Origin: Escherichia coli
Lineage (GTDB): Bacteria; Pseudomonadota; Gammaproteobacteria; Enterobacterales; Enterobacteriaceae
Reading direction: 5' to 3' (one strand)
DNA: 64,000 nt
Assembly: GCF_024298765.1 (NCBI RefSeq)
Contig: NZ_CP101210.1
Shown one piece after another: positions 27,585 through 38,985 of the stretch. Positions within the stretch are counted from its first letter, which is position 1; every line of letters starts with the position of its first letter. The notes under the pieces are model-generated. The model was not told the DNA's origin. It searched no databases and was given only the letters and a program-made list of their open reading frames with translations. The position numbers and the translations under genes are program-made.

Positions 27585-28394
27585 ATGTCACTTCCTGTTC
27601 CTTTTGGTGCAATTGTTACAGTAGTGAAGAAATGCTGGTCTACTCTTACCCAGATAATGCTGATAAAAACTTATCAACTCTCACATGAGCGCTGGGCAGT
27701 GAGACACAGGCTAGGGGCGAGCTGGCATTCCTTAGGGAATTATTTGGAGTACAGTCTACGATTTGCTCAGTTGACAGATAAAGAACCTCGTTGTTCACGT
27801 ATTGCTTTCAGAAGCAAAGAGGAACGACTGCAACAAGTTGAACTTGTTTTTGAAGCCATTGGCAGTGGCTTACGCTACCAAGAAACACTATGCATTCATG
27901 ATGTAAATAACTCACCGATAATATTAACGCTTTCAAATATTCCTACACTTGATGTACTTATTCTAGATGATGGATTCGCATTTACGGTTGAACAGTACCA
28001 GTTAAAATATTGCACGATAAAATTAATGACTGGTGAAAGTATATCTATTGACAATTCGCCCAAATATTCGCTAATGCAAAACTGGTGTCTCAATGATACA
28101 TGGAAACGGCGTTGGGGTATCATCTGGAACTGTAATGCAATTGAATGTGCCCGAAGGCGTATTGCTGAATATTGGAAATGGGGCTTTTGTCTGCCGTTAG
28201 TGGGACGCCCCCCGTTATATTCACCATCGCGAAAAGGTATTCATCTGTTTGAAGCAAAACCGTTACGCTGGTTTATGACACGCCCATGGTGTCTGAATAT
28301 CCAGTTTTGGACGGCAATTTGGTCAGGACTGTTTATTCTCAGCGATGAGAATGTCTTGCAATGGCGCTGGAAAGAGCCACCACAACAAGACTAA
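27585..28394 (+). CDS. Hypothetical protein (Trp/Cys-rich C-terminal half)
   Basis: 269-aa ORF in AT-rich DNA, bounded by hairpin repeats R2 and R3. No family recognised. Confidence 0.5.
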   Translation: MSLPVPFGAIVTVVKKCWSTLTQIMLIKTYQLSHERWAVRHRLGASWHSLGNYLEYSLRFAQLTDKEPRCSRIAFRSKEERLQQVELVFEAIGSGLRYQETLCIHDVNNSPIILTLSNIPTLDVLILDDGFAFTVEQYQLKYCTIKLMTGESISIDNSPKYSLMQNWCLNDTWKRRWGIIWNCNAIECARRRIAEYWKWGFCLPLVGRPPLYSPSRKGIHLFEAKPLRWFMTRPWCLNIQFWTAIWSGLFILSDENVLQWRWKEPPQQD

Positions 28395-30474: not shown

Positions 30475-31578
30475 ATGATGTTCGATGTTGACGATACTGC
30501 ACCCGATACTCCCGCCCCCCGTGAACTCAGTCAGGATGTGCAGGCGCTGATCAACAATGGTCTGGATTTTCTGGATAAAGCCCGTGAAGAGTTGGAGGCC
30601 TCGAAGCCGAAGTTCTCCGTCGTCAGTTTCTGGACTGCGGTCGAGATTTTACTGAAAGTTCCGCTGGCGCACGAACACTGGTCGTTGGTCTGCAGCCCGA
30701 AAAAGCCAATAAAAAAGCAGGCTTACCTAGCCGGTGATTTTCAGTCGGTGACCTACGAAGAAACCCGTGAAAGGCTTAAGGACGTACTTGAAAGACCCCT
30801 AGACAGAGAAACGGACAGTGCTTTTGATAAGGTCAGAAAGCACCGCAACCGCGTAGTTCATTTCTACCACCCCACTTTCACCGAGGCTGAACAACGTCAA
30901 ATACTCAAAGAACAAGCTGACGCCTGGTTTGCCCTGAACCGGTTATTAAGGGATGAATGGAAAGTTATCTTCGGTGTCAAACATAATTGGAAGCTGGCTT
31001 TCGGTGAAACTCGTCTGATTAGGGGAAACAAATTTTATGCCGAGGTGCGGTTTAAACAGGTTAAGCCTGAACTCGAGCAGCTCTCTGAAAAGAATATTCA
31101 AATCGGTAACTGCAATGAGTGCCATCAGCATGCGACGGTAACAGGGACTGAAACGACCGGTAATGAAAACCGTAAGCTTGAAGTTACGCGGTGTAAGGTT
31201 TGCACCAGTGCTGTAAGGCAAATTACCCTAGTTTGTCCAGACTGCGAAATACCTCAATTGCTACCTGAGGGAGATAGTGATTTTGAATGCGAACACTGCG
31301 ACTACACTTCGGATAGGTATAAACTGCTGGATGAGGAGTTGTTCCACAGTGTGGATGAACAGCTACTCTCCGTATTTCCTGCTGGATGTACCAATTGCAT
31401 GACTCCTGAAAGCGTATGTAAATTTGGAGACGGCTATCTTTGCACTCAGTGTTTCATCTATTACACCGAGCTTCATGTATGTGGTTGTTGCGGTCACCTG
31501 AGCGATAGCGTTCCTGAACTGAGCCATATCCGAGGATGTGAATTTTGTGATGGTGACCAACGTTATTTTGATGACTGA
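30475..31578 (+). CDS. HEPN-like (Rx4H) domain protein fused to an array of CxxC zinc ribbons
   Basis: 367 aa. The helical N-terminal half contains KVRKHRNRVVHFYH. The C-terminal half carries at least 12 Cys in CxxC pairs (CNECH, CKVC, CPDC, CEHC, CTNC, CTQC, CGCC, CEFC). A strong RBS aaaggag lies upstream. Confidence 0.6.
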   Translation: MMFDVDDTAPDTPAPRELSQDVQALINNGLDFLDKAREELEASKPKFSVVSFWTAVEILLKVPLAHEHWSLVCSPKKPIKKQAYLAGDFQSVTYEETRERLKDVLERPLDRETDSAFDKVRKHRNRVVHFYHPTFTEAEQRQILKEQADAWFALNRLLRDEWKVIFGVKHNWKLAFGETRLIRGNKFYAEVRFKQVKPELEQLSEKNIQIGNCNECHQHATVTGTETTGNENRKLEVTRCKVCTSAVRQITLVCPDCEIPQLLPEGDSDFECEHCDYTSDRYKLLDEELFHSVDEQLLSVFPAGCTNCMTPESVCKFGDGYLCTQCFIYYTELHVCGCCGHLSDSVPELSHIRGCEFCDGDQRYFDD

Positions 31579-31648: not shown

Positions 31649-31799
31649 AGATTAGATTCAGACCTGTACTCATTAGCTGATACAAATCAGCCACATATAC
31701 CTGCATTCCAAATAATTTCAGGCAGATATTATCTCCGTGAATCCCCCCGCCACCTTTCCGGTGCGCGGGGTTTTGTCTTTTTTCACCGGGAATACATGT

Positions 31800-32234
31800 A
31801 TGAATCCGTCTGATGCCATTGAGGCAATTGAAAAACCGCTCTCCTCCCTGCCTTACTCACTTTCCCGTCACATCCTGGAACATCTGCGCAAACTCACCAG
31901 CCACGAACCCGTGCCTGGCATTATGGGTAAAAGCGGGGCCGGTAAATCCTCACTCTGTAATGCACTGTTTCAGGGGGAGGTCACCCCGGTCAGTGCACTC
32001 ATGACAGCGCTTCCCGGACATGCCGCCATCCCTCTGATGACACGCCTGCAGGACGAACTGCGCACGGAGTCTGTCCGCACTCAGACCCGTGAACAGTTTA
32101 CCGGTGCGGTGGACCGGATATTTGACACGGCGGAGAGTGTCTGTGTTGCCTCTGTTGTCCGTACGGCCCTGCGCGCAGTTCGTGACACGGTGGTCTCTGT
32201 TGCCCGCGCGGTATGGAACTGGATTTTCTTCTGA
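31800..32234 (+). pseudogene. yeeP: YeeP/YkfA/YfjP-family GTPase with large internal in-frame deletion
   Basis: Translation reads MNPSDAIEAIEKPLSSLPYSLSRHILEHLRKLTSHEPV.GIMGKSGAGKSSLCNALFQGEVTPVS, joined directly to ALMTALPGHAAIPLMTRLQDELRTESVR...WNWIFF. The P-loop and C-terminus are kept and the G-domain core is missing. Confidence 0.8.
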
Positions 32235-32340
32235 ACCCGGTGGTGATGTACCAGGCTGTTGTTACAGATTTTTAACTCCATGAAAACACTATGCAAACGC
32301 AGCTATACCCGGGGTGTCCCCTTGCGTTGTGCTTCCCAAG

Positions 32341-32400
32341 TTAATAGAATACATCGATCGTTACTATCATATCGATCGTTATAAACGATCGTTTGTAGTA
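32341..32400 (+). promoter_or_regulatory. Triple-GATC repeat cluster upstream of the dynamin-like operon (candidate Dam-sensitive operator)
   Basis: ttaatagaatacatCGATCGTTActatcatatCGATCGTTAtaaaCGATCGTTtg. GATC sites are at 32356, 32374 and 32387, and the cluster ends ~62 nt before the ATG at 32452. Confidence 0.55.
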
Positions 32401-32451
32401 AATGACCTCCTCCGTGGTTGTCATGAAAATGCGTCTCAGGAAGGTTAAATA

Positions 32452-34848
32452 ATGCACGAAAAGAACATCGCCCTGCTTTGTGATGAAGCCGACCGACTTT
32501 TGCAACTGAACATTAATCTGCTCCGGCAAATGGTTGAGGAGCCAGATGTGTTATCTGACAGTAAGAACGAAAACAGACTGCTTTTTGATAAACAGAAAGC
32601 ACTGAAAAGAATTGAGGAGCTGGAGGGCGAACAAATCAAAACCGCCCGCAGGGAGATGGTGCTGGCTGTTGTCGGCACGATGAAAGCAGGCAAATCAACC
32701 ACCATCAACGCCATTGTGGGGCAGGAAATTCTGCCTAACCGTAACCGCCCCATGACCTCTGTACCGACGCTCATCCGCCACGTTCCCGGAAAAACTGAGC
32801 CGGTTCTCCATCTGGAACATATTCAGCCTGTCCGCAATTTATTAATCACACTGCAGGAAAAACTCGCCACCCCGGCAGGACAGCAGGTCGCACAGACCCT
32901 GCAGCAAACCGGGGATACCCGCGAACTGCTGGATATTCTGACGGATGATGGCTGGCTCAAAAATGAATACCACGGGGAGGAGGAAATCTTTACCGGACTG
33001 GCATCGTTAAACGATCTGGTTCGTCTTGCTGCGGCAATGGGGACTGAATTTCCTTTTGATGAATACGCAGAAGTGCAGAAACTGCCGGTGATCGACGTGG
33101 AATTCAGCCATCTGGTGGGGATGGATGCATGCCAGGGAACACTCACACTGCTGGATACCCCCGGCCCTAATGAGGCCGGACAACCGCAGATGGAAGTGAT
33201 GATGCGGGATCAACTGCAGAAAGCCTCTGCGGTTCTGGCTGTGATGGATTACACCCAGATGAACTCAAAAGCGGATGAAGACGTCCGTAAAGAGCTTAAT
33301 GCCATTGCTGACGTATCAGCCGGCCGCCTGTTTGTACTGGTCAATAAATTTGATGAGAAAGACCGCAATGGCGATGGGGCAGATGCCGTACGCCAGAAAG
33401 TTCCGGCAATGCTGAACAGCGATGTGCTGCCCGCCTCCCGCGTTTATCCCGGATCCTCACGCCAGGCATACCTGGCTAACCGTGCGCTTCATGAGTTACG
33501 GAAAAACGGAACCCTTCCTGTTGATGAAGCCTGGGTCGATGATTTTGTCAGGGAAGCCTTCGGTCGCATGAAAAAAGATTACGTCTGTAAAGACAGCGAA
33601 CTGGCAACTGAAGGGGCGACAGACCTGTGGGAAGGCTCACTTATCGATCAACTGATAACGGAAGTCATACTGAGTTCACACTCCAGAGCGGCGGCACTGG
33701 CGGTTGATTCTGCTGCCGCAAAACTGATGCAGAATGCAGAAAATGTCAGCGAATATCTGTCATTACGCCATCAGGGGCTGCAGCAAAGCATTCAGTCACT
33801 GCAGGCGAATATCACCAGCCTGCTTGCGGATATCCGGAAAATCGCGGACTGTCAGGAGCAGGTGACCGCTGATGTCAGAATGGCCATGGAGGAGATCGAT
33901 GCCAGAACCCGGGAATTACTGACGGGGGTCTGCACCTCACTGGAAGAGGAGCTGAATGACTATTTCAGAACTGGTAAACGCAAAGAACAGCAAATGTTGG
34001 AGGAAGAAGACGCAGAACAACGAAGGTCCCGGTCCGGATTATGGGGAAAGATTTCTCAATGGTCCGGTATCAACAACCCGGGCTGGGAAGATTACAGGAA
34101 ACGAGACTTTGACCCGGAAAACCCCGAGATAACACTAAATAATCGTAGGGAAGCAATTGAATATATAGAGGAAATTGAGTCAACTGTGACCAGCCTGCAC
34201 CGTGAGGCTGAAGCACAGTTCCGGCCTGAGCTGGAGAAAATCGTCAGCGGGATTGAAACAGGTTTTCGTGGCACGGCCCTGTACGCCACAGAAAACATTG
34301 CCGGTCGCATCAATGCCCGCCTGGAGGATGAGGGCTTTACCGTAAAAATCAGTTTTCCGGCAGTCAGTCAGTTACAGACCCGGCTCGCGGTAAAAACAAA
34401 TCTGAGTGCGCTTATGGAGGAAAGAACGGAGACCGTCACCCGTCGCCGTCGGCAGAGTGGCGTATGGGGAACCGTTTGTCGATGGTTTGGCACCAGTGAC
34501 CTGGGCTGGGAAAACTATGACGAGGATGTGAGTCGCAGCGTGATCAATATCAACAAGGTCAGAGAGGAAGTTATGTCACTGACCCGGGCATATTTCGGGG
34601 AGCTGCAGGCATCCATTGAGCAGGATATTAACCAGCCCGTCCGCCAGGAAATCGATGCCTTTTTCTGCGCATTCAGGGAGAAAGTTGAACAACTGCGTAA
34701 CACGCTGATTCAGAGCTCTGAAGATCATAAACGCGATCAGCAGGCACAGGAACGGCTTACCGGGAGACTTCAGGCATTAAATGAAAGGGTTCCTGAGCTC
34801 ATTACTGACAGTAAGGCGCTGAGGGAAGAGCTGGAGACAATGCTGTGA
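32452..34848 (+). CDS. Bacterial dynamin-like GTPase (YjdA/RdcA-, LeoA-, BDLP-type)
   Basis: 798 aa. G1 is VVGTMKAGKSTTINAIVG, G2 candidate is PMTSVPT, G3 is LLDTPGPNE, G4 is VLVNKFDEKD. The long helical stalk carries an internally duplicated SG.WG...W.G....GWE.Y segment. Confidence 0.85.
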   Translation: MHEKNIALLCDEADRLLQLNINLLRQMVEEPDVLSDSKNENRLLFDKQKALKRIEELEGEQIKTARREMVLAVVGTMKAGKSTTINAIVGQEILPNRNRPMTSVPTLIRHVPGKTEPVLHLEHIQPVRNLLITLQEKLATPAGQQVAQTLQQTGDTRELLDILTDDGWLKNEYHGEEEIFTGLASLNDLVRLAAAMGTEFPFDEYAEVQKLPVIDVEFSHLVGMDACQGTLTLLDTPGPNEAGQPQMEVMMRDQLQKASAVLAVMDYTQMNSKADEDVRKELNAIADVSAGRLFVLVNKFDEKDRNGDGADAVRQKVPAMLNSDVLPASRVYPGSSRQAYLANRALHELRKNGTLPVDEAWVDDFVREAFGRMKKDYVCKDSELATEGATDLWEGSLIDQLITEVILSSHSRAAALAVDSAAAKLMQNAENVSEYLSLRHQGLQQSIQSLQANITSLLADIRKIADCQEQVTADVRMAMEEIDARTRELLTGVCTSLEEELNDYFRTGKRKEQQMLEEEDAEQRRSRSGLWGKISQWSGINNPGWEDYRKRDFDPENPEITLNNRREAIEYIEEIESTVTSLHREAEAQFRPELEKIVSGIETGFRGTALYATENIAGRINARLEDEGFTVKISFPAVSQLQTRLAVKTNLSALMEERTETVTRRRRQSGVWGTVCRWFGTSDLGWENYDEDVSRSVININKVREEVMSLTRAYFGELQASIEQDINQPVRQEIDAFFCAFREKVEQLRNTLIQSSEDHKRDQQAQERLTGRLQALNERVPELITDSKALREELETML

Positions 34849-35750
34849 CTTCACCATTTATTCAACAAATTGCTGATAACCGGGTATGTCAGGTACTCAC
34901 CTGTCTTCCTGAAAAATTTGTGGTTGATTTCGCAAACGGAATCGATGTTGCACAGGAGCATATCCGCACGGCCAGAGAGCGCACGTTCTTCCGGCGTTTA
35001 AAAGAGGGACTGACCGGCGAAGGCGCTGCACGGCAGAATGCCATCAATGCTTCGCTTGCACAGGGCGTTGAGGCGTCCCTGCGCTGGCTGACGGAGCTGA
35101 CAACGTCACTTGCCACCACAAACTACGCGATTACCCGGGTAAACGACAGGGTCAGTTCACTGGTCAGTGATACTGCCAGGCTGGCGCATTATTCCGCAGA
35201 TACACGGGAGCAGTTACTCATCCTGGCCGATCAGGTTCACCATAAACTGAATCATCTTGAAGAAAAACTCCACCGTGTTGACCAGGTTCAGCGGGCGCAG
35301 TTACATCTTGAGCAGATATTCTCATGGTGGAGCGCCGGGCGATACGCGTCATTTTCCCCTGCCGGACGTTGTTATGTGGCACTTGAAGAGCTTCGCTGGG
35401 GCGCGTTTGGTGATGTGATACGTCAGGGCGAAACAGGCCAGGTTAACCAGCTACTGGATATTCTCAGACATAAAGCATTAACGCAGATGGCACAGGAGAG
35501 TGGCGGTAGTGCAACCGTGCGTCTGAACACTCTGGACTGGCTTGGTGGTCAGGGCCGGGAGCAGGCAGATAACGAGTGGCATGACGCGATTAACTGGCTG
35601 GGAGACTGGTGCAGTGAAGAGCAGCATCCGGTGATCTGGTCAACCACGCAGGCTGCAGAACACTTACCGGTTCGCATGCCTCGCCTCTGCTCTGCAGAAC
35701 GCCTCTCTGAAAGTATGGTCGATGAAATATTTCAGAAGGGGGCTGCATGA
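34845..35750 (+). CDS. RdcB (YjcZ)-like dynamin partner protein
   Basis: 301 aa, mostly helical. Its GTG start overlaps the dynamin stop (GTGA). The size and position match the yjdA-yjcZ (rdcA-rdcB) arrangement in K-12. The family call is from memory, not from alignment. Confidence 0.5.
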   Translation: MTSPFIQQIADNRVCQVLTCLPEKFVVDFANGIDVAQEHIRTARERTFFRRLKEGLTGEGAARQNAINASLAQGVEASLRWLTELTTSLATTNYAITRVNDRVSSLVSDTARLAHYSADTREQLLILADQVHHKLNHLEEKLHRVDQVQRAQLHLEQIFSWWSAGRYASFSPAGRCYVALEELRWGAFGDVIRQGETGQVNQLLDILRHKALTQMAQESGGSATVRLNTLDWLGGQGREQADNEWHDAINWLGDWCSEEQHPVIWSTTQAAEHLPVRMPRLCSAERLSESMVDEIFQKGAA

Positions 35751-36817
35751 GTACAGAAATGAAAACGGGGCTGGTGCTGTCCGGTGGCGGGGCGGTGGGC
35801 GCTTATCAGGCGGGAGTGGTTAAGGCACTGGCAGAGTGTGGTACACAGATCAGCATGGTTTCAGGGGCCAGCATTGGCGCATTCAATGGTGCCATTATCG
35901 CGGCCTCTCCCGATCTGTCAGAAGCTGCCGTACGCCTGGAGGCGCTCTGGGATCATCTGGGGAATAATCAGGTGCTGTCGGTAAACAGATTGGTTTACTT
36001 TTCATTGCTGAAAAAACTGCTCCCGGCCATGAACCTCTGCCAGCTCCCCGGACGTGCGGGCGCACTGCTTACGACGCTTCTTCACCATATATCGACAATC
36101 AACAGGTTTGACAATCTGATGACTCAGCCGTTGTTGTCAGATGGGCCCCTGACAGTGCTGATGGATCATTATCTTGATACTGATGATCTGGCTGACGGGC
36201 TACCGTTGTATGTGTCGCTGTACCCCACGGAAGGGGGAATGCAGGATATTATCGACTGCATTCGTGCTGAACTGGGTACCGGAACTACAAAAAACTCCGT
36301 TTTTCAGCATATCCAGAGCCTGCCCCACGGGCAGCAGAAAGAAGCCTTACTGGCGTCAGCAGCACTGCCCCTGCTGTTCCGTCCCCGTGAGGTACAGGGA
36401 AAAATGTACGGTGATGGTGGTATGGGCGGATGGCAAAATATGCAGGGGAATACCCCTGTGACGCCACTGGTGGATGCCGGATGCAATATGGTGATTGTGT
36501 CGCATCTGAGTGACGGTTCTTTATGGGATCGCCGGGCTTTTCCGGACACCACAATCCTTGAAATCCGTCCCCGGAAAAAGCTGAAACAAACAGGGGAAGA
36601 AGGCAAAAGTGGCGGTCTGCTCAGTTTTACATCGGCACATATCGACACCTGGCGTCAGCAGGGCTATGAAGACACGATGCTGGCGATGGAGCATATCCGG
36701 AAACCACTGGAGGCGCGTCAGGCACTGACCCGGTCAGAGGCGGTGTTGCAGAAAAGTCTGGAGAAAACGGAAGAGGCAGATTTGGCACTGAGAAACGCGA
36801 TGGCCCGGATTAAATAA
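35747..36817 (+). CDS. Patatin-like phospholipase
   Basis: 356 aa with the oxyanion motif LSGGGAVGAYQAG, nucleophile elbow GASIG and catalytic Asp motif YGDGGMGG. Its start overlaps the previous stop (ATGA). Confidence 0.85.
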   Translation: MSTEMKTGLVLSGGGAVGAYQAGVVKALAECGTQISMVSGASIGAFNGAIIAASPDLSEAAVRLEALWDHLGNNQVLSVNRLVYFSLLKKLLPAMNLCQLPGRAGALLTTLLHHISTINRFDNLMTQPLLSDGPLTVLMDHYLDTDDLADGLPLYVSLYPTEGGMQDIIDCIRAELGTGTTKNSVFQHIQSLPHGQQKEALLASAALPLLFRPREVQGKMYGDGGMGGWQNMQGNTPVTPLVDAGCNMVIVSHLSDGSLWDRRAFPDTTILEIRPRKKLKQTGEEGKSGGLLSFTSAHIDTWRQQGYEDTMLAMEHIRKPLEARQALTRSEAVLQKSLEKTEEADLALRNAMARIK

Positions 36818-36832
36818 AGACGCCCCAAAGAA

Positions 36833-36858
36833 ACGCCACCGCCTGTGGTGGTGTTTTT
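36833..36858 (+). terminator. Rho-independent terminator ending the three-gene operon
   Basis: acgccacc-gcctgt-ggtggtgt followed by tttt, 16 nt after the patatin stop. Confidence 0.6.
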
Positions 36859-36945
36859 CCTGGCTGGTGTTATTGAAAATATTTTCAGATATATATTACC
36901 CGGACGATGGTTAAGATTGATTTATTTAATTTTGGGGAGAAAATT

Positions 36946-37413
36946 ATGAGACTGTCAAATATTTTCCTGGCTGTAGTTTTAACTGTGACCGTATCTGTAG
37001 CACACGCTATTCCAAATATGTGGGGCAGTGGCTTCACGATGGGCGTTACTGAGTTCAGTATTGATAACGGTAAGTGGGGTATCAATATCAGTTGCACAGG
37101 TAACCCCAACGAAAACAATGTGCTGGCGCACACAATCTATATTTACAAAGGAGATAAGGTGGTCGCAAACTCGGAAGAAAAAAATATTAGTTTCGTTATT
37201 GACGGTGAAGAATTCTGGGGTGTGGTTCCTGACGGTACCCGTATGAACGATAACGCCTGGGTTAGCTTTGTAAAAGCAATAAGCACTGCAACCGGGTTTG
37301 AACTGTACATAAACGAGAAGAAAGTTGCGACGTTTAACCCGTCTGCCAAAAACGTTAAGAAAGTGATGGATAATAACTTTATCCAGTCGTGCTGGAATAC
37401 CTGGTACGAATAA
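36946..37413 (+). CDS. Small secreted hypothetical protein 1
   Basis: Signal peptide MRLSNIFLAVVLTVTVSVAHA and RBS ggggag. 155 aa from the ATG at 36946. AT-rich. Confidence 0.55.
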   Translation: MRLSNIFLAVVLTVTVSVAHAIPNMWGSGFTMGVTEFSIDNGKWGINISCTGNPNENNVLAHTIYIYKGDKVVANSEEKNISFVIDGEEFWGVVPDGTRMNDNAWVSFVKAISTATGFELYINEKKVATFNPSAKNVKKVMDNNFIQSCWNTWYE

Positions 37414-37468
37414 CGATTACAGGAGAGGGGGACTTCCTGGCCCCCGATTTATTTAAGGAGTGCATGAA

Positions 37469-38098
37469 ATGAAACATTTTTTAATTCTGGTTATCGGTTT
37501 ACTCATTTCCATCACCGCGACTGCCGAATCGCTGGGTCAGTTTGAAGAGGATATCACCGGTTTTCCGCAGGGAGTATGGTTTTACAAAGAAAAAGCAGGC
37601 TGGAAAAACGAAACCGGGTATAAAAAAGAATATTTAAACAGTCTCCTCTATAAGGCCGAAGAAATTGCGAATTATCCGGGTAACAGATACACGATTTACC
37701 GTAGTAAAAACAGCAGCATAATTTTCGTCGCTGACAACGAAACCAGGACTTTCTACTTGCTAAACAACAAGGACGCCTTATGGTCTGATATTCAGATCGG
37801 GTATTGGGCTGAGAACAAAAACTCGTGTCACTACGTCTTTGTCGATACTCAATACCTTGCGCAAAGTAACGAACTTGACGAGTTCTTTCGAACCGGGGTG
37901 CTCGATACTCATGGTGTTGGTGAATCGGATCGTAAAGTAAAAGAGATCAGACAAAAACATAAGACTCATGTCTTACTCCGCCTGCCTGCGCAATGTGTGA
38001 ATGATGCGATCCTCAGCAGAATGAATAAGTCCGAACGTCGTGATCTAATGAAAGCGCAAGAAGATTTCAAACAATATCTTGCCAGAATGGAGCTGTAA
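37469..38098 (+). CDS. Small secreted hypothetical protein 2
   Basis: Signal peptide MKHFLILVIGLLISITATA. An aaggag lies 8 nt upstream of the ATG at 37469. 209 aa. Confidence 0.55.
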   Translation: MKHFLILVIGLLISITATAESLGQFEEDITGFPQGVWFYKEKAGWKNETGYKKEYLNSLLYKAEEIANYPGNRYTIYRSKNSSIIFVADNETRTFYLLNNKDALWSDIQIGYWAENKNSCHYVFVDTQYLAQSNELDEFFRTGVLDTHGVGESDRKVKEIRQKHKTHVLLRLPAQCVNDAILSRMNKSERRDLMKAQEDFKQYLARMEL

Positions 38099-38128
38099 GT
38101 ATTCAACCTTTTCGCAACTGTGAGTGAA

Positions 38129-38377
38129 ATGAAAATCAAAACTATACTTTATACTATCATTCTTTTCTGTGAAATTGGCATCACCGACACTTATGCACTC
38201 GGTGGTTCGGATATCCGTCACTGCGAACCAACTGAAGAATCTGTAATTATTAACCCGGACGAGTCACCGGTGTTAATATATAGCTTCAGTAAACACGAAG
38301 TGTATAAACTGATGCAGGGGGATACCTGCACTGGGCTAGTTATTAGCGATAAAAAGCCAAAGCCTGTCCACGTTTAA
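38129..38377 (+). CDS. Small secreted hypothetical protein 3
   Basis: MKIKTILYTIILFCEIGITDTYA is signal-like. 82 aa. Confidence 0.4.
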   Translation: MKIKTILYTIILFCEIGITDTYALGGSDIRHCEPTEESVIINPDESPVLIYSFSKHEVYKLMQGDTCTGLVISDKKPKPVHV

Positions 38378-38532
38378 TGGACATCGCTTGCGAACCGCCA
38401 GAAGTCATGTCTGCCAGCATTCATCTACTGGCCGCGGATAATTATACGACCATGGATTTCTGCCATAACGCCGAATTAATCGGTCGTATTCCGTAAGCCG
38501 TGGTATCGAATAATTTAAGAAGGATTTTTATC

Positions 38533-38985
38533 ATGAAACACCGACACATTTTAACGTTCTTTGTTGCTTTCCTGTTCATGACTATCGTACCTGATAGCGA
38601 CGCCGCATTAGTAAAGCGTCCTGAGAAAGGTCGTGCACCGTTCCCGGAATATGTGGAGTTCGCGCAAAACCGTAACCAGTTCCCATGTAATGCACGTTTA
38701 CGCTTTAAAGGTCTCTGCTTTGTTGAACAAACTGACCCCTGGGGTGCAGCAAGCGTTGTCCGAATCCCTTTCAATTCCCCCAATGGTAAAGGCAGACTTA
38801 ACGCTTATGGCGTGGTTGTTCATGCAATAATGGTTGGTGATGTTGTCGTTGGTGGCAGCTATTCAACTGGCAAGAATGTTACCTGGAATTTCGATACGTT
38901 TTATAGGGAGGGTAAACGTCGCGGTAAGGTGACCTTTTATGTTGATGGTAAATACTGGCACTATCGCGACTATCCACTCGAATAA
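38533..38985 (+). CDS. Small secreted hypothetical protein 4
   Basis: Signal peptide MKHRHILTFFVAFLFMTIVPDSDA. 150 aa from the ATG at 38533. Confidence 0.5.
   Translation: MKHRHILTFFVAFLFMTIVPDSDAALVKRPEKGRAPFPEYVEFAQNRNQFPCNARLRFKGLCFVEQTDPWGAASVVRIPFNSPNGKGRLNAYGVVVHAIMVGDVVVGGSYSTGKNVTWNFDTFYREGKRRGKVTFYVDGKYWHYRDYPLE

Follow-up and report, generated by a model that had tools for sequence, protein, structure and literature searches.

Introduction

RdcA and RdcB (YjdA and YjcZ) form a GTPase system which activates the diguanylate cyclase DgcE, via its MASE1 domain, in Escherichia coli. GTP-bound RdcA is in its off state and cytosolic; when GTP drops, (p)ppGpp rises or the cell is de-energised, the protein hydrolyses its GTP and moves to the membrane. 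Its C-terminal domain binds and activates DgcE, and RdcB, in stable complex with it, promotes assembly. Mutation of K82 or T103 of RdcA abolishes function (all results from PMC6510439 and PMC13463826). Here we analyse an operon of three genes (the trio) encoding homologues of both proteins, a dynamin-like GTPase and a YjcZ/RdcB-family partner, together with a patatin-like phospholipase. It lies within a stretch of 64,000 nucleotides from E. coli (contig NZ_CP101210.1), which is called the window throughout. We read the locus as a self-contained mobile GTPase-gated phospholipase module, probably defensive and probably phase-variable, and give this reading a probability of roughly one half.

Dynamin-family GTPases also make up Eleos (LeoA/LeoBC), which is island-borne, is linked to defence islands and requires its GTP-binding motifs for defence against jumbo phages. 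The patatin fold with its Ser–Asp dyad is found in CapV and CapE, lipases of the anti-phage signalling system based on cyclic oligonucleotides (CBASS), and in VipD of Legionella and ExoU of Pseudomonas. These enzymes are inactive until a partner binds: CapV and CapE are cyclic-nucleotide-activated, the structure of VipD is that of a complex with the GTPase Rab5, and ExoU is activated by ubiquitin. CapV is a membrane-destroying effector of abortive infection. JukAB, a defence against jumbo phages, combines the YaaW sensor JukA with varied effectors. JukA senses phage ejection, as found experimentally, and proteins in which it is fused to patatin, a Ras-like GTPase or an unknown coiled-coil domain have already been noted (Juk preprint). 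Finally, agn43 (flu) is subject to heritable phase variation: OxyR represses when bound to the unmethylated operator (OFF), and Dam methylation of the GATC sites blocks OxyR (ON) (PMC3764049).

In the literature searched on dynamin, patatin, YjcZ, RdcB and anti-phage defence, only two E. coli genomics papers, both from 2026, touch the trio. One (PMC12922286, January 2026), a transcriptome study, reports the same operon on PAI-CFT073-aspV and on a second island as a "putative dynamin phage defense system"; the other (PMC13182975) lists the genes in an island of a Shiga toxin-producing E. coli (STEC). Both did so without functional tests. New in the present work are the tracing of the distribution and the recognition of the promoter, together with the variable, often defence-type flanks, a natural JukA–YjcZ fusion and the hypervariable loop of the dynamin.

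A translationally coupled operon under purifying selection

The operon and its elements are as follows (aa, amino acids; ORF, open reading frame).

32438–32444, + strand: Shine–Dalgarno sequence AGGAAGG, 7 nt 5' of the ORF1 ATG (read from the sequence)
32452–34848, + strand: ORF1, RdcA/CrfC-family dynamin-like GTPase, 798 aa, ATG start
33994–34161, + strand: hypervariable loop of ORF1, aa ~515–570 (from comparison of E. coli alleles)
34441–34527, + strand: conserved basic Trp-rich loop of ORF1, RRRRQSGVWGTVCRWFGTSDLGWENY, aa 664–692
34845–35750, + strand: ORF2, YjcZ/RdcB-family partner, 301 aa, GTG start
35747–36817, + strand: ORF3, patatin-like phospholipase, 356 aa, ATG start
36834–36858, + strand: intrinsic terminator, GC-rich hairpin followed by a T-run (RNA fold)

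Both junctions are 4-nt start/stop overlaps, GTGA between ORF1 and ORF2 and ATGA between ORF2 and ORF3. The terminator stem (36837–36853) is followed by TTTTT and folds with −21.5 kcal/mol (z = −4.4 versus shuffles). The trio has a G+C content of 51–56%, its flanks 43–48%. None of the three proteins contains a transmembrane-like segment or a signal peptide.

Ratios of non-synonymous to synonymous substitution (dN/dS) between alleles are 0.09–0.33 in most comparisons, indicating purifying selection; the sole outlier, 0.62, concerns ORF2 in a comparison where dS is only 0.009. The low ratios and the motifs invariant in 69–72 homologues (see below) show that the trio consists of real genes under selection and not of chance ORFs.

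An earlier note, made on the window from its letters alone, had described three overlapping same-strand ORFs of these lengths, translationally coupled and closed by a hairpin with a T-run. It had also quoted the catalytic motifs of ORF1 and ORF3 and taken ORF1 and ORF2 for relatives of RdcA and RdcB. Coordinates, overlaps and terminator proved exact, the motifs are all present, and both family assignments agree with the profile searches reported here.

ORF1 is a dynamin-like GTPase related to RdcA

ORF1 matches Dynamin_N of Pfam (3e-18). Its G domain (aa 71–299) carries GTMKAGKST at aa 75, DTPG at aa 235 and NKFD at aa 298, and is followed by a long helical stalk. The P-loop Lys K81 and the G2 Thr T102 align with, and are equivalent to, K82 and T103 of RdcA. 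These motifs, T102 included, are characteristic of GTPases of the dynamin superfamily and are invariant among 72 homologues.

Identity to RdcA of E. coli K-12 is 34% over the full length. The NCBIfam model for CrfC (NF007368) likewise matches over the full length, with 566.7 bits. As this is below the equivalog cutoff of 1146 bits, ORF1 is by sequence a homologue and paralogue of RdcA/CrfC, not an equivalog. No paddle or transmembrane-like insertion segment of the BDLP/DynA type was found in ORF1 (maximal Kyte–Doolittle hydropathy over 19 residues, 1.16), and similarity to BDLP in the PDB is confined to the P-loop region.

Two loops stand out. The hypervariable loop is an insertion which is not present in the RdcA clade. 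Here E. coli alleles share only 13–15 of 30 residues, while blocks of 30 residues elsewhere in ORF1 have 21–30 identical residues, mostly at least 26; a second divergent block, aa 361–390, has 15 of 30 in one allele. A surface loop of this kind, in a protein otherwise under constraint, is consistent with recognition, although it could alternatively be a relaxed linker. The loop of the window allele holds a second, basic Trp-rich motif, RRSRSGLWGKISQWSGINNPGWEDY. It repeats the conserved Trp-rich motif in degenerate form, with 14 of 26 residues and ~61% of the nucleotides in common; alleles of sequence type 131 (ST131) and of the O157 type have unrelated sequence at this position. The conserved Trp-rich loop itself, with the consensus RR..WG..C..F.T.DWGWE.Y, is a hallmark of the trio homologues and is partly retained in RdcA. 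We regard it as a candidate membrane- or partner-binding element.

ORF2 belongs to the small YjcZ/RdcB family

The YjcZ domain of Pfam covers ORF2 over its full length (5.5e-71; 239.5 bits versus a cutoff of 27), and identity to RdcB of K-12 is 31%. In an AlphaFold2 model a long helix (aa 59–164) is joined by a small C-terminal domain, and a search for solved structural relatives gave none. The YjcZ family is small, as a profile search of 1.84 billion cluster representatives yielded only 447 members.

ORF3 is a patatin-like lipase with an intact active site

The Patatin domain (PF01734) was found in ORF3 with 3.3e-25 (89.8 bits versus a cutoff of 27.7). The three catalytic motifs named in the earlier note are intact: the oxyanion motif GGGAVG at aa 13, GASIG at aa 40 with the nucleophile S42, and DGG at aa 223 with D223. 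These motifs are characteristic of patatin-like phospholipases, and G13–G15, S42 and D223 are invariant in 69 homologues. The model comprises a patatin core, an insert predicted with low confidence (aa 80–125) and a 60-residue C-terminal helix (aa 296–355). The nearest solved structures, as revealed by Foldseek, are PlpD, the CBASS lipases CapV and CapE, VipD and ExoU. Since four of these (CapV, CapE, VipD, ExoU) are partner-activated, ORF3 may need an activator as well. In contrast to the cofactor-activated lipases, it has a C-terminal helix of its own, and its presumed activator is the dynamin/YjcZ pair.

Truncated patatin genes occur in many E. coli lineages, for example 237 aa in an O157:H7 strain and 202 aa in O104:H4, and insertion sequences of the IS21 type interrupt the operon in others. 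The system is therefore being inactivated in some lineages.

The trio differs from Eleos and from CBASS

Eleos comprises two or three dynamin-like proteins in succession and lacks genes for YjcZ and patatin. The trio has a single dynamin gene and no Leo model passes: for LeoBC the match of ORF1 is marginal (1.6e-4, with no passing stretch) and for LeoA there is none. It is thus not Eleos. Neither is it CBASS, because the operon contains neither a CD-NTase nor a cyclic-nucleotide gene and the lipase stays under the cutoff of the CBASS_lipase model NF041079 (18.3 bits versus 200).

The trio is mobile, widespread and conserved in gene order

The 4.6-kb region is present, with at least 80% coverage, in 2444 of 5426 complete E. 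coli genomes (45%), in up to five places per genome. Carriers include ST131, O157-type and other STEC strains, islands of the type found in uropathogenic E. coli (UPEC), and commensal and environmental E. coli. RefSeq labels the genes 'dynamin family', 'diguanylate cyclase regulator RdcB family' and 'patatin-like phospholipase family'. Klebsiella, Enterobacter and E. coli carry a variant with a 63%-identical ORF2 homologue, flanked by insertion sequences, on conjugative IncF plasmids. Carriage by phages was rejected: only two IMG/VR contigs matched, and these are 98% and 86% identical to the E. coli protein, so that they are probably islands called as viral.

To survey the family, we scanned one genome per GTDB species with an alignment of YjcZ homologues, which gave 79 loci. 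Dynamin, YjcZ and patatin genes follow each other in the same order at 38 of them, in two proteobacterial classes, so that the adjacency is not peculiar to one strain. This set comprises every locus which is at least 43% identical to ORF2 and long enough to judge, and four more distant ones. Most junctions overlap by 4 or 1 nt, which extends to other hosts the coupling seen in the window. The hosts are Gamma- and Betaproteobacteria, among them Escherichia, Pantoea, Erwinia, Budvicia, Pseudomonas, Psychrobacter, Allochromatium, Thiodictyon, Nitrosomonas, Gallionella, Sideroxydans and Comamonadaceae. Four of the most distant YjcZ representatives examined from the cluster-representative search also lie in trios. 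Between loci, the three proteins diverge in a correlated manner (r = 0.69–0.85 for pairwise distances), YjcZ and patatin most tightly. The conserved order and these correlations indicate that the linkage to patatin is ancient and general. Some E. coli proteins that seem to fuse dynamin with YjcZ, or YjcZ with patatin (P0361 and others), look like products of frameshifts or mis-calls of the overlapping genes and were not used.

These data bear on the idea that the operon is inert island cargo, which was left intact by chance or acquired recently and has no current function in E. coli. It would account for the many truncated copies (237-aa patatin fragments, IS21 insertions) and for the pseudogenised neighbours. 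It does not account for the dN/dS values of 0.09–0.33, for full-length genes in thousands of genomes, for the conservation of all catalytic residues, or for the transcription of the operon in strain MP1, and we give it hardly any credence.

The rdcAB pair probably derives from the trio

The trio and rdcAB have both protein families in common, in identical order and with the same 4-nt overlap, and the G1–G4 motifs are identical. Probably they also share a GTP-bound off state, membrane recruitment, and activation of a client with the partner in complex. They differ in that identity to RdcA and RdcB is only 34% and 31%, in the extra hypervariable loop of ORF1 and in the third, coupled patatin gene. 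Moreover, the location of the mobile trio varies, whereas rdcAB occupies a fixed core locus between yjdM and proP with no effector gene.

Among the survey loci, every lipase-less pair belongs to Enterobacteriaceae (Enterobacter, Kosakonia, Phytobacter, Cedecea, Atlantibacter, Citrobacter, Franconibacter, Siccibacter, Yokenella and Scandinavium). The pair makes up one clade in neighbour-joining trees of dynamin and of YjcZ alike, and the trio of Budvicia (Enterobacterales) is the sister of this clade in the dynamin tree. Its locus is fixed: 30 of 40 loci have both immediate neighbours in common, and in K-12 the pair lies between yjdM and proP.

The earlier note had regarded the trio as a paralogue of the RdcAB module 'rewired' to a lipase. 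As the trio is spread over two proteobacterial classes and the pair is one clade of Enterobacteriaceae in a fixed locus, this direction is probably backwards. The trio appears to be the ancestral or majority architecture of the YjcZ family, and rdcAB is probably a domesticated derivative which lost the lipase. The trees are distance-based and midpoint-rooted, which is why the direction is given here as probable.

Neighbouring genes point to conflict, and one fusion links the family to JukA

We scanned 144 ORFs within ~3 kb of 29 non-redundant trios. Nine of these trios have a WYL or WYL-WCX regulator nearby, two directly upstream on the same strand, two divergent and the rest within ~3 kb; one further metagenomic trio has a WYL gene and IS66 upstream. 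Control of defence systems is typical of WYL regulators of the BrxR/CapW type. JukA is found near five of the 29, in four of them on the same strand and 3–58 nt downstream, and is accompanied by JukB in two. The adjacency occurs in Pantoea, Erwinia and two Pseudomonas lineages; in Giesbergeria JukA is 2.8 kb away. In the window, no JukA lies beside the trio, and most trio loci have none. The five loci with JukA are given below, in coordinates of the respective loci.

L003, 9034–10793
L005, 9004–10781
L016, 8957–10808
L034, 8993–9727
L023, 11753–12520

Other flanks contain type I restriction–modification (RM) genes, three PADLOC candidates (PDC-S17, S24 and S68), SoFic, mad2 and a ZacB/SNF2-like pair, and also P4-type integrases, transposases and PIN genes. 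A fourth conserved gene was sought by all-against-all clustering of the flanking ORFs of 37 trio loci, and no neighbour was common to more than six.

A physiological role in membrane homeostasis has to be weighed at this point. Upon starvation or de-energisation the GTPase pair would bring the lipase to the membrane and phospholipids would be remodelled. This could serve lysolipid or fatty-acid release, curvature, repair or vesiculation, as an adaptation to stationary phase or envelope stress. RdcA is indeed a growth-phase sensor of GTP and (p)ppGpp which is recruited to the membrane, other bacterial dynamins act in membrane repair, some trio loci lie in housekeeping neighbourhoods, and free-living chemolithotrophs possess the trio. 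Its variable location, its carriage on plasmids and islands and its patchy spread (45% of E. coli, with multiple copies in some genomes) speak against such a role, as do the association with WYL, Juk and RM genes and the hypervariable loop of ORF1; all of this is atypical for housekeeping lipid metabolism. We consider homeostasis unlikely, though still the main rival to a defensive role.

One YjcZ-family protein, P0294, combines both families: a complete JukA (PADLOC, 8e-74; DUF3944 of Pfam) is joined to a complete YjcZ domain (1.1e-47). A patatin gene follows with a 4-nt overlap; a dynamin gene is absent, and parE and parC lie upstream.

L091, 6001–8630: P0294 locus on ERZ19489111 contig_1, a 1.44-Mb metagenomic contig

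The presence of a patatin gene and of JukA in place of the dynamin suggests that YjcZ and patatin form an effector pair which may be driven by alternative upstream modules. The fusion was rejected as a recurrent architecture, only one having been found. The close JukA relatives P0385–P0396 have C-terminal GTPase or unknown domains instead.

It could also be supposed that the operon is an accessory regulator of cyclic di-GMP, whose GTPase pair cross-talks with DgcE or another MASE1 cyclase, patatin being a passenger. The homology to RdcA and RdcB and the RefSeq name of ORF2 would agree with this. A passenger, however, would not be expected to be coupled by overlaps in trio loci, to co-vary most tightly with the YjcZ protein, or to persist with YjcZ where the dynamin is missing, as in the JukA–YjcZ locus. 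Furthermore, ORF1 has insertions in the region which aligns to the C-terminal half of RdcA. Cross-talk of this kind is therefore very improbable.

The operon has an agn43-type promoter and may be phase-variable

Directly 5' of the operon lies a control region which the earlier note had missed.

31737–32234, + strand: truncated YeeP-like P-loop GTPase ORF, 165 aa, which marks the usual flu/cah slot
32322–32394, + strand: predicted agn43-type promoter and phase-variation operator (homology to K-12 flu and to cah of strain 272)
32322–32327, + strand: −35 element TTGCGT
32345–32350, + strand: −10 element TAGAAT
32356, 32374 and 32387, + strand: three GATC sites within repeated CGATCGTT motifs

The 200 nt upstream of ORF1 are homologous to the yeeP–flu intergenic region of CP4-44 in K-12 and also to the region 5' of cah, an Ag43 homologue, in an O157-type island. 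The 3' end of the YeeP-like ORF and the following spacer correspond to the yeeP–flu junction of CP4-44. The annotated 5' end of the K-12 isrC/flu transcript is the first GATC, and by homology the operon transcript would start near 32356. The −10 element is thus followed by three GATC sites in the first ~35 nt of the transcript, the arrangement of agn43-type promoters. A promoter found by consensus scan (TTAATA-18-TATCAT) was set aside, as the −10 element TAGAAT has the support of homology. Three other clusters of three GATC sites in the window (17898, 27137 and 44952) are not agn43-like.

The agn43-type region is retained in the ST131 and Escherichia albertii alleles, and the same agn43/cah-type operator occurs at two further loci (L082, 2880–2960; L096, 1490–1570). 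About three quarters of the E. coli carriers have matches which include the upstream segment, so that the operon is probably transcribed from such a promoter in these. In the window island the dynamin operon takes the place of flu/cah after yeeP. The order in the O157-type island is yeeP, agn43-type promoter, cah, a 110-nt spacer and the trio; no promoter-like or terminator-like site was found in the spacer.

The trio shares with the agn43/cah switch the −10 element TAGAAT, the three GATC sites at the transcript start and the place after yeeP in a CP4-type island. It differs in that a dynamin operon and not an autotransporter lies downstream, in a spacing between GATC sites I and II which is 1 nt shorter, and in diverged sequence between the sites. 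From the promoter homology and the presence of all three GATC sites, the operon is predicted to be phase-variable, with heritable ON and OFF states set by Dam versus OxyR.

This prediction offers another view of published expression data. The operon is transcribed, at strongly different levels, in two clonal derivatives of E. coli MP1. It shows the strongest 'up-regulation' of any cluster in the Kapi1 lysogen regardless of medium, and phase variation was not considered (PMC12922286). Clonal ON/OFF bias is a documented pitfall for agn43 (PMC3764049). If the operon is phase-variable as predicted, the 'induction' by Kapi1 may reflect an ON or OFF state and not control by the prophage.

The promoter also recalls a role in virulence or host interaction, in which the lipase of a pathogenicity island would be a toxin or a vesicle-release factor, phase-variable like Ag43; vesicle release was once proposed for LeoA. 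Such a role would suit islands of the PAI-CFT073-aspV type, where the trio lies beside iron uptake genes and cah/Ag43, the structural neighbourhood of the patatin toxins ExoU, VipD and PlpD, and the agn43-type switch. It is nevertheless improbable. Signal peptides and transmembrane segments are missing from all three proteins, the trio is not linked to a secretion system, and it is also present in Gallionella, Sideroxydans, Nitrosomonas, Allochromatium and soil Pseudomonas as well as in commensal and environmental E. coli.

The island around the operon

The window island adjoins tRNA-Asp beside dnaQ. It also holds an antirestriction gene, a JAB/RadC-like gene and a CbtA/YeeU toxin–antitoxin pair, and some neighbours of the trio are pseudogenised. 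Just 5' of the trio lies a 367-aa ORF (30475–31578) which matches the PADLOC candidate single-gene system HEC-08 with 1e-173. It has an N-terminal DUF3644/HEPN-like region and C-terminal Cys-rich repeats (zinc-ribbon), and no Pfam or NCBIfam family matched it. The defence-like surroundings described in the earlier note (a HEPN/zinc-ribbon protein, antirestriction and toxin–antitoxin genes) were thus found again.

On the 3' side of the terminator (36907–38985) there are small AT-rich ORFs of 168, 212, 85 and 161 aa (43–45% G+C), hypothetical in RefSeq, with hydrophobic N-termini resembling signal peptides. ARAGORN called a tRNA-Gly(GCC) at 27824–27898 on the − strand, within a 269-aa ORF on the + strand (27585–28394). 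The call may be false, or may point to a tRNA-like fragment left at an old integration site.

Discussion

With RdcA and RdcB as template, the following mechanism can be proposed for a GTPase-gated phospholipase. The ORF1 GTPase would form a stable complex with ORF2, and the pair would act as a nucleotide-state switch which recruits or activates the ORF3 lipase at the cytoplasmic membrane. Bound to GTP, ORF1 would be cytosolic and off. When GTP drops, (p)ppGpp rises or the cell is de-energised, it would hydrolyse its GTP, move to the membrane and activate its client via the C-terminal domain. In the trio this client would be the lipase, and cleavage of phospholipids would remodel or destroy the membrane. 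Such an enzyme could kill or disable a phage-infected or otherwise compromised cell, or attack membrane structures made by the phage. In defence, the module might be triggered when energy or GTP collapses in the infected cell, or by membrane structures derived from the phage. The sequence data establish gene content, coupling, conservation, intact active sites, mobility, context and promoter homology; complex formation, GTP gating, lipase activation, the defence role and actual phase switching are proposals.

Of the biological roles considered, conflict or defence is the most likely. This view is based on the variable flanks, the location on islands and IncF plasmids, the WYL, Juk and RM neighbours, the JukA–YjcZ fusion, the hypervariable loop and the HEC-08-like gene next door.

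Several points weigh against a defensive, GTPase-gated and phase-variable lipase. No phenotype is on record for any trio member, and the characterised paralogue, RdcA/RdcB, controls cyclic di-GMP and biofilm and is not a defence system. The contact of ORF3 with ORF1 or ORF2 is something we infer. In the lipase, the Arg or Lys which canonical patatins have in GGGxR/KG is Val in E. coli, although Pseudomonas members have Lys. The sequence between the GATC sites has diverged from agn43, and binding of OxyR is a prediction. The adjacency to JukA could be a functional link, but may be ordinary clustering in defence islands. Among 57 relatives the JukA–YjcZ fusion turned up once, and so it serves as a pointer only. 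Several trios (L092, L094, L095) lie amid housekeeping genes with no mobile or defence neighbour, so that the association with defence is substantial but not universal. A tblastn search of 50,697 phage records gave no match. Finally, no named system of PADLOC-DB v2.0.0 matched the trio; ORF2 gave no match, and ORF1 and ORF3 gave marginal generic ones. The earlier note had called it a candidate undescribed system. This stands in so far as PADLOC v2 names no such system, but RefSeq annotates the genes and phage defence had already been proposed (PMC12922286).

A further-reaching proposal is tentative and, taken as a whole, somewhat unlikely. According to it, the trio would be a widespread unrecognised anti-phage system, in which the dynamin senses GTP or energy collapse or phage membranes via its hypervariable loop and licenses the lipase. 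JukA could alternatively drive the YjcZ–patatin pair, E. coli would practise bet-hedging immunity by an Ag43-type switch, and the RdcAB–DgcE biofilm pathway would be the domesticated, lipase-less descendant of the immune module.

The operon, whose function we infer, occurs in nearly half of the complete E. coli genomes, including ST131, STEC and UPEC-type islands. If the reading as a GTPase-gated lipase is true, it would represent a new control of a membrane-destroying lipase, through a dynamin-type GTP switch. It would also provide an origin for the RdcAB pathway of cyclic di-GMP signalling and a candidate immune module under epigenetic phase variation. Given the promoter, expression differences between clonal strains, as in the Kapi1 lysogens, may represent the ON or OFF phase state rather than regulation.

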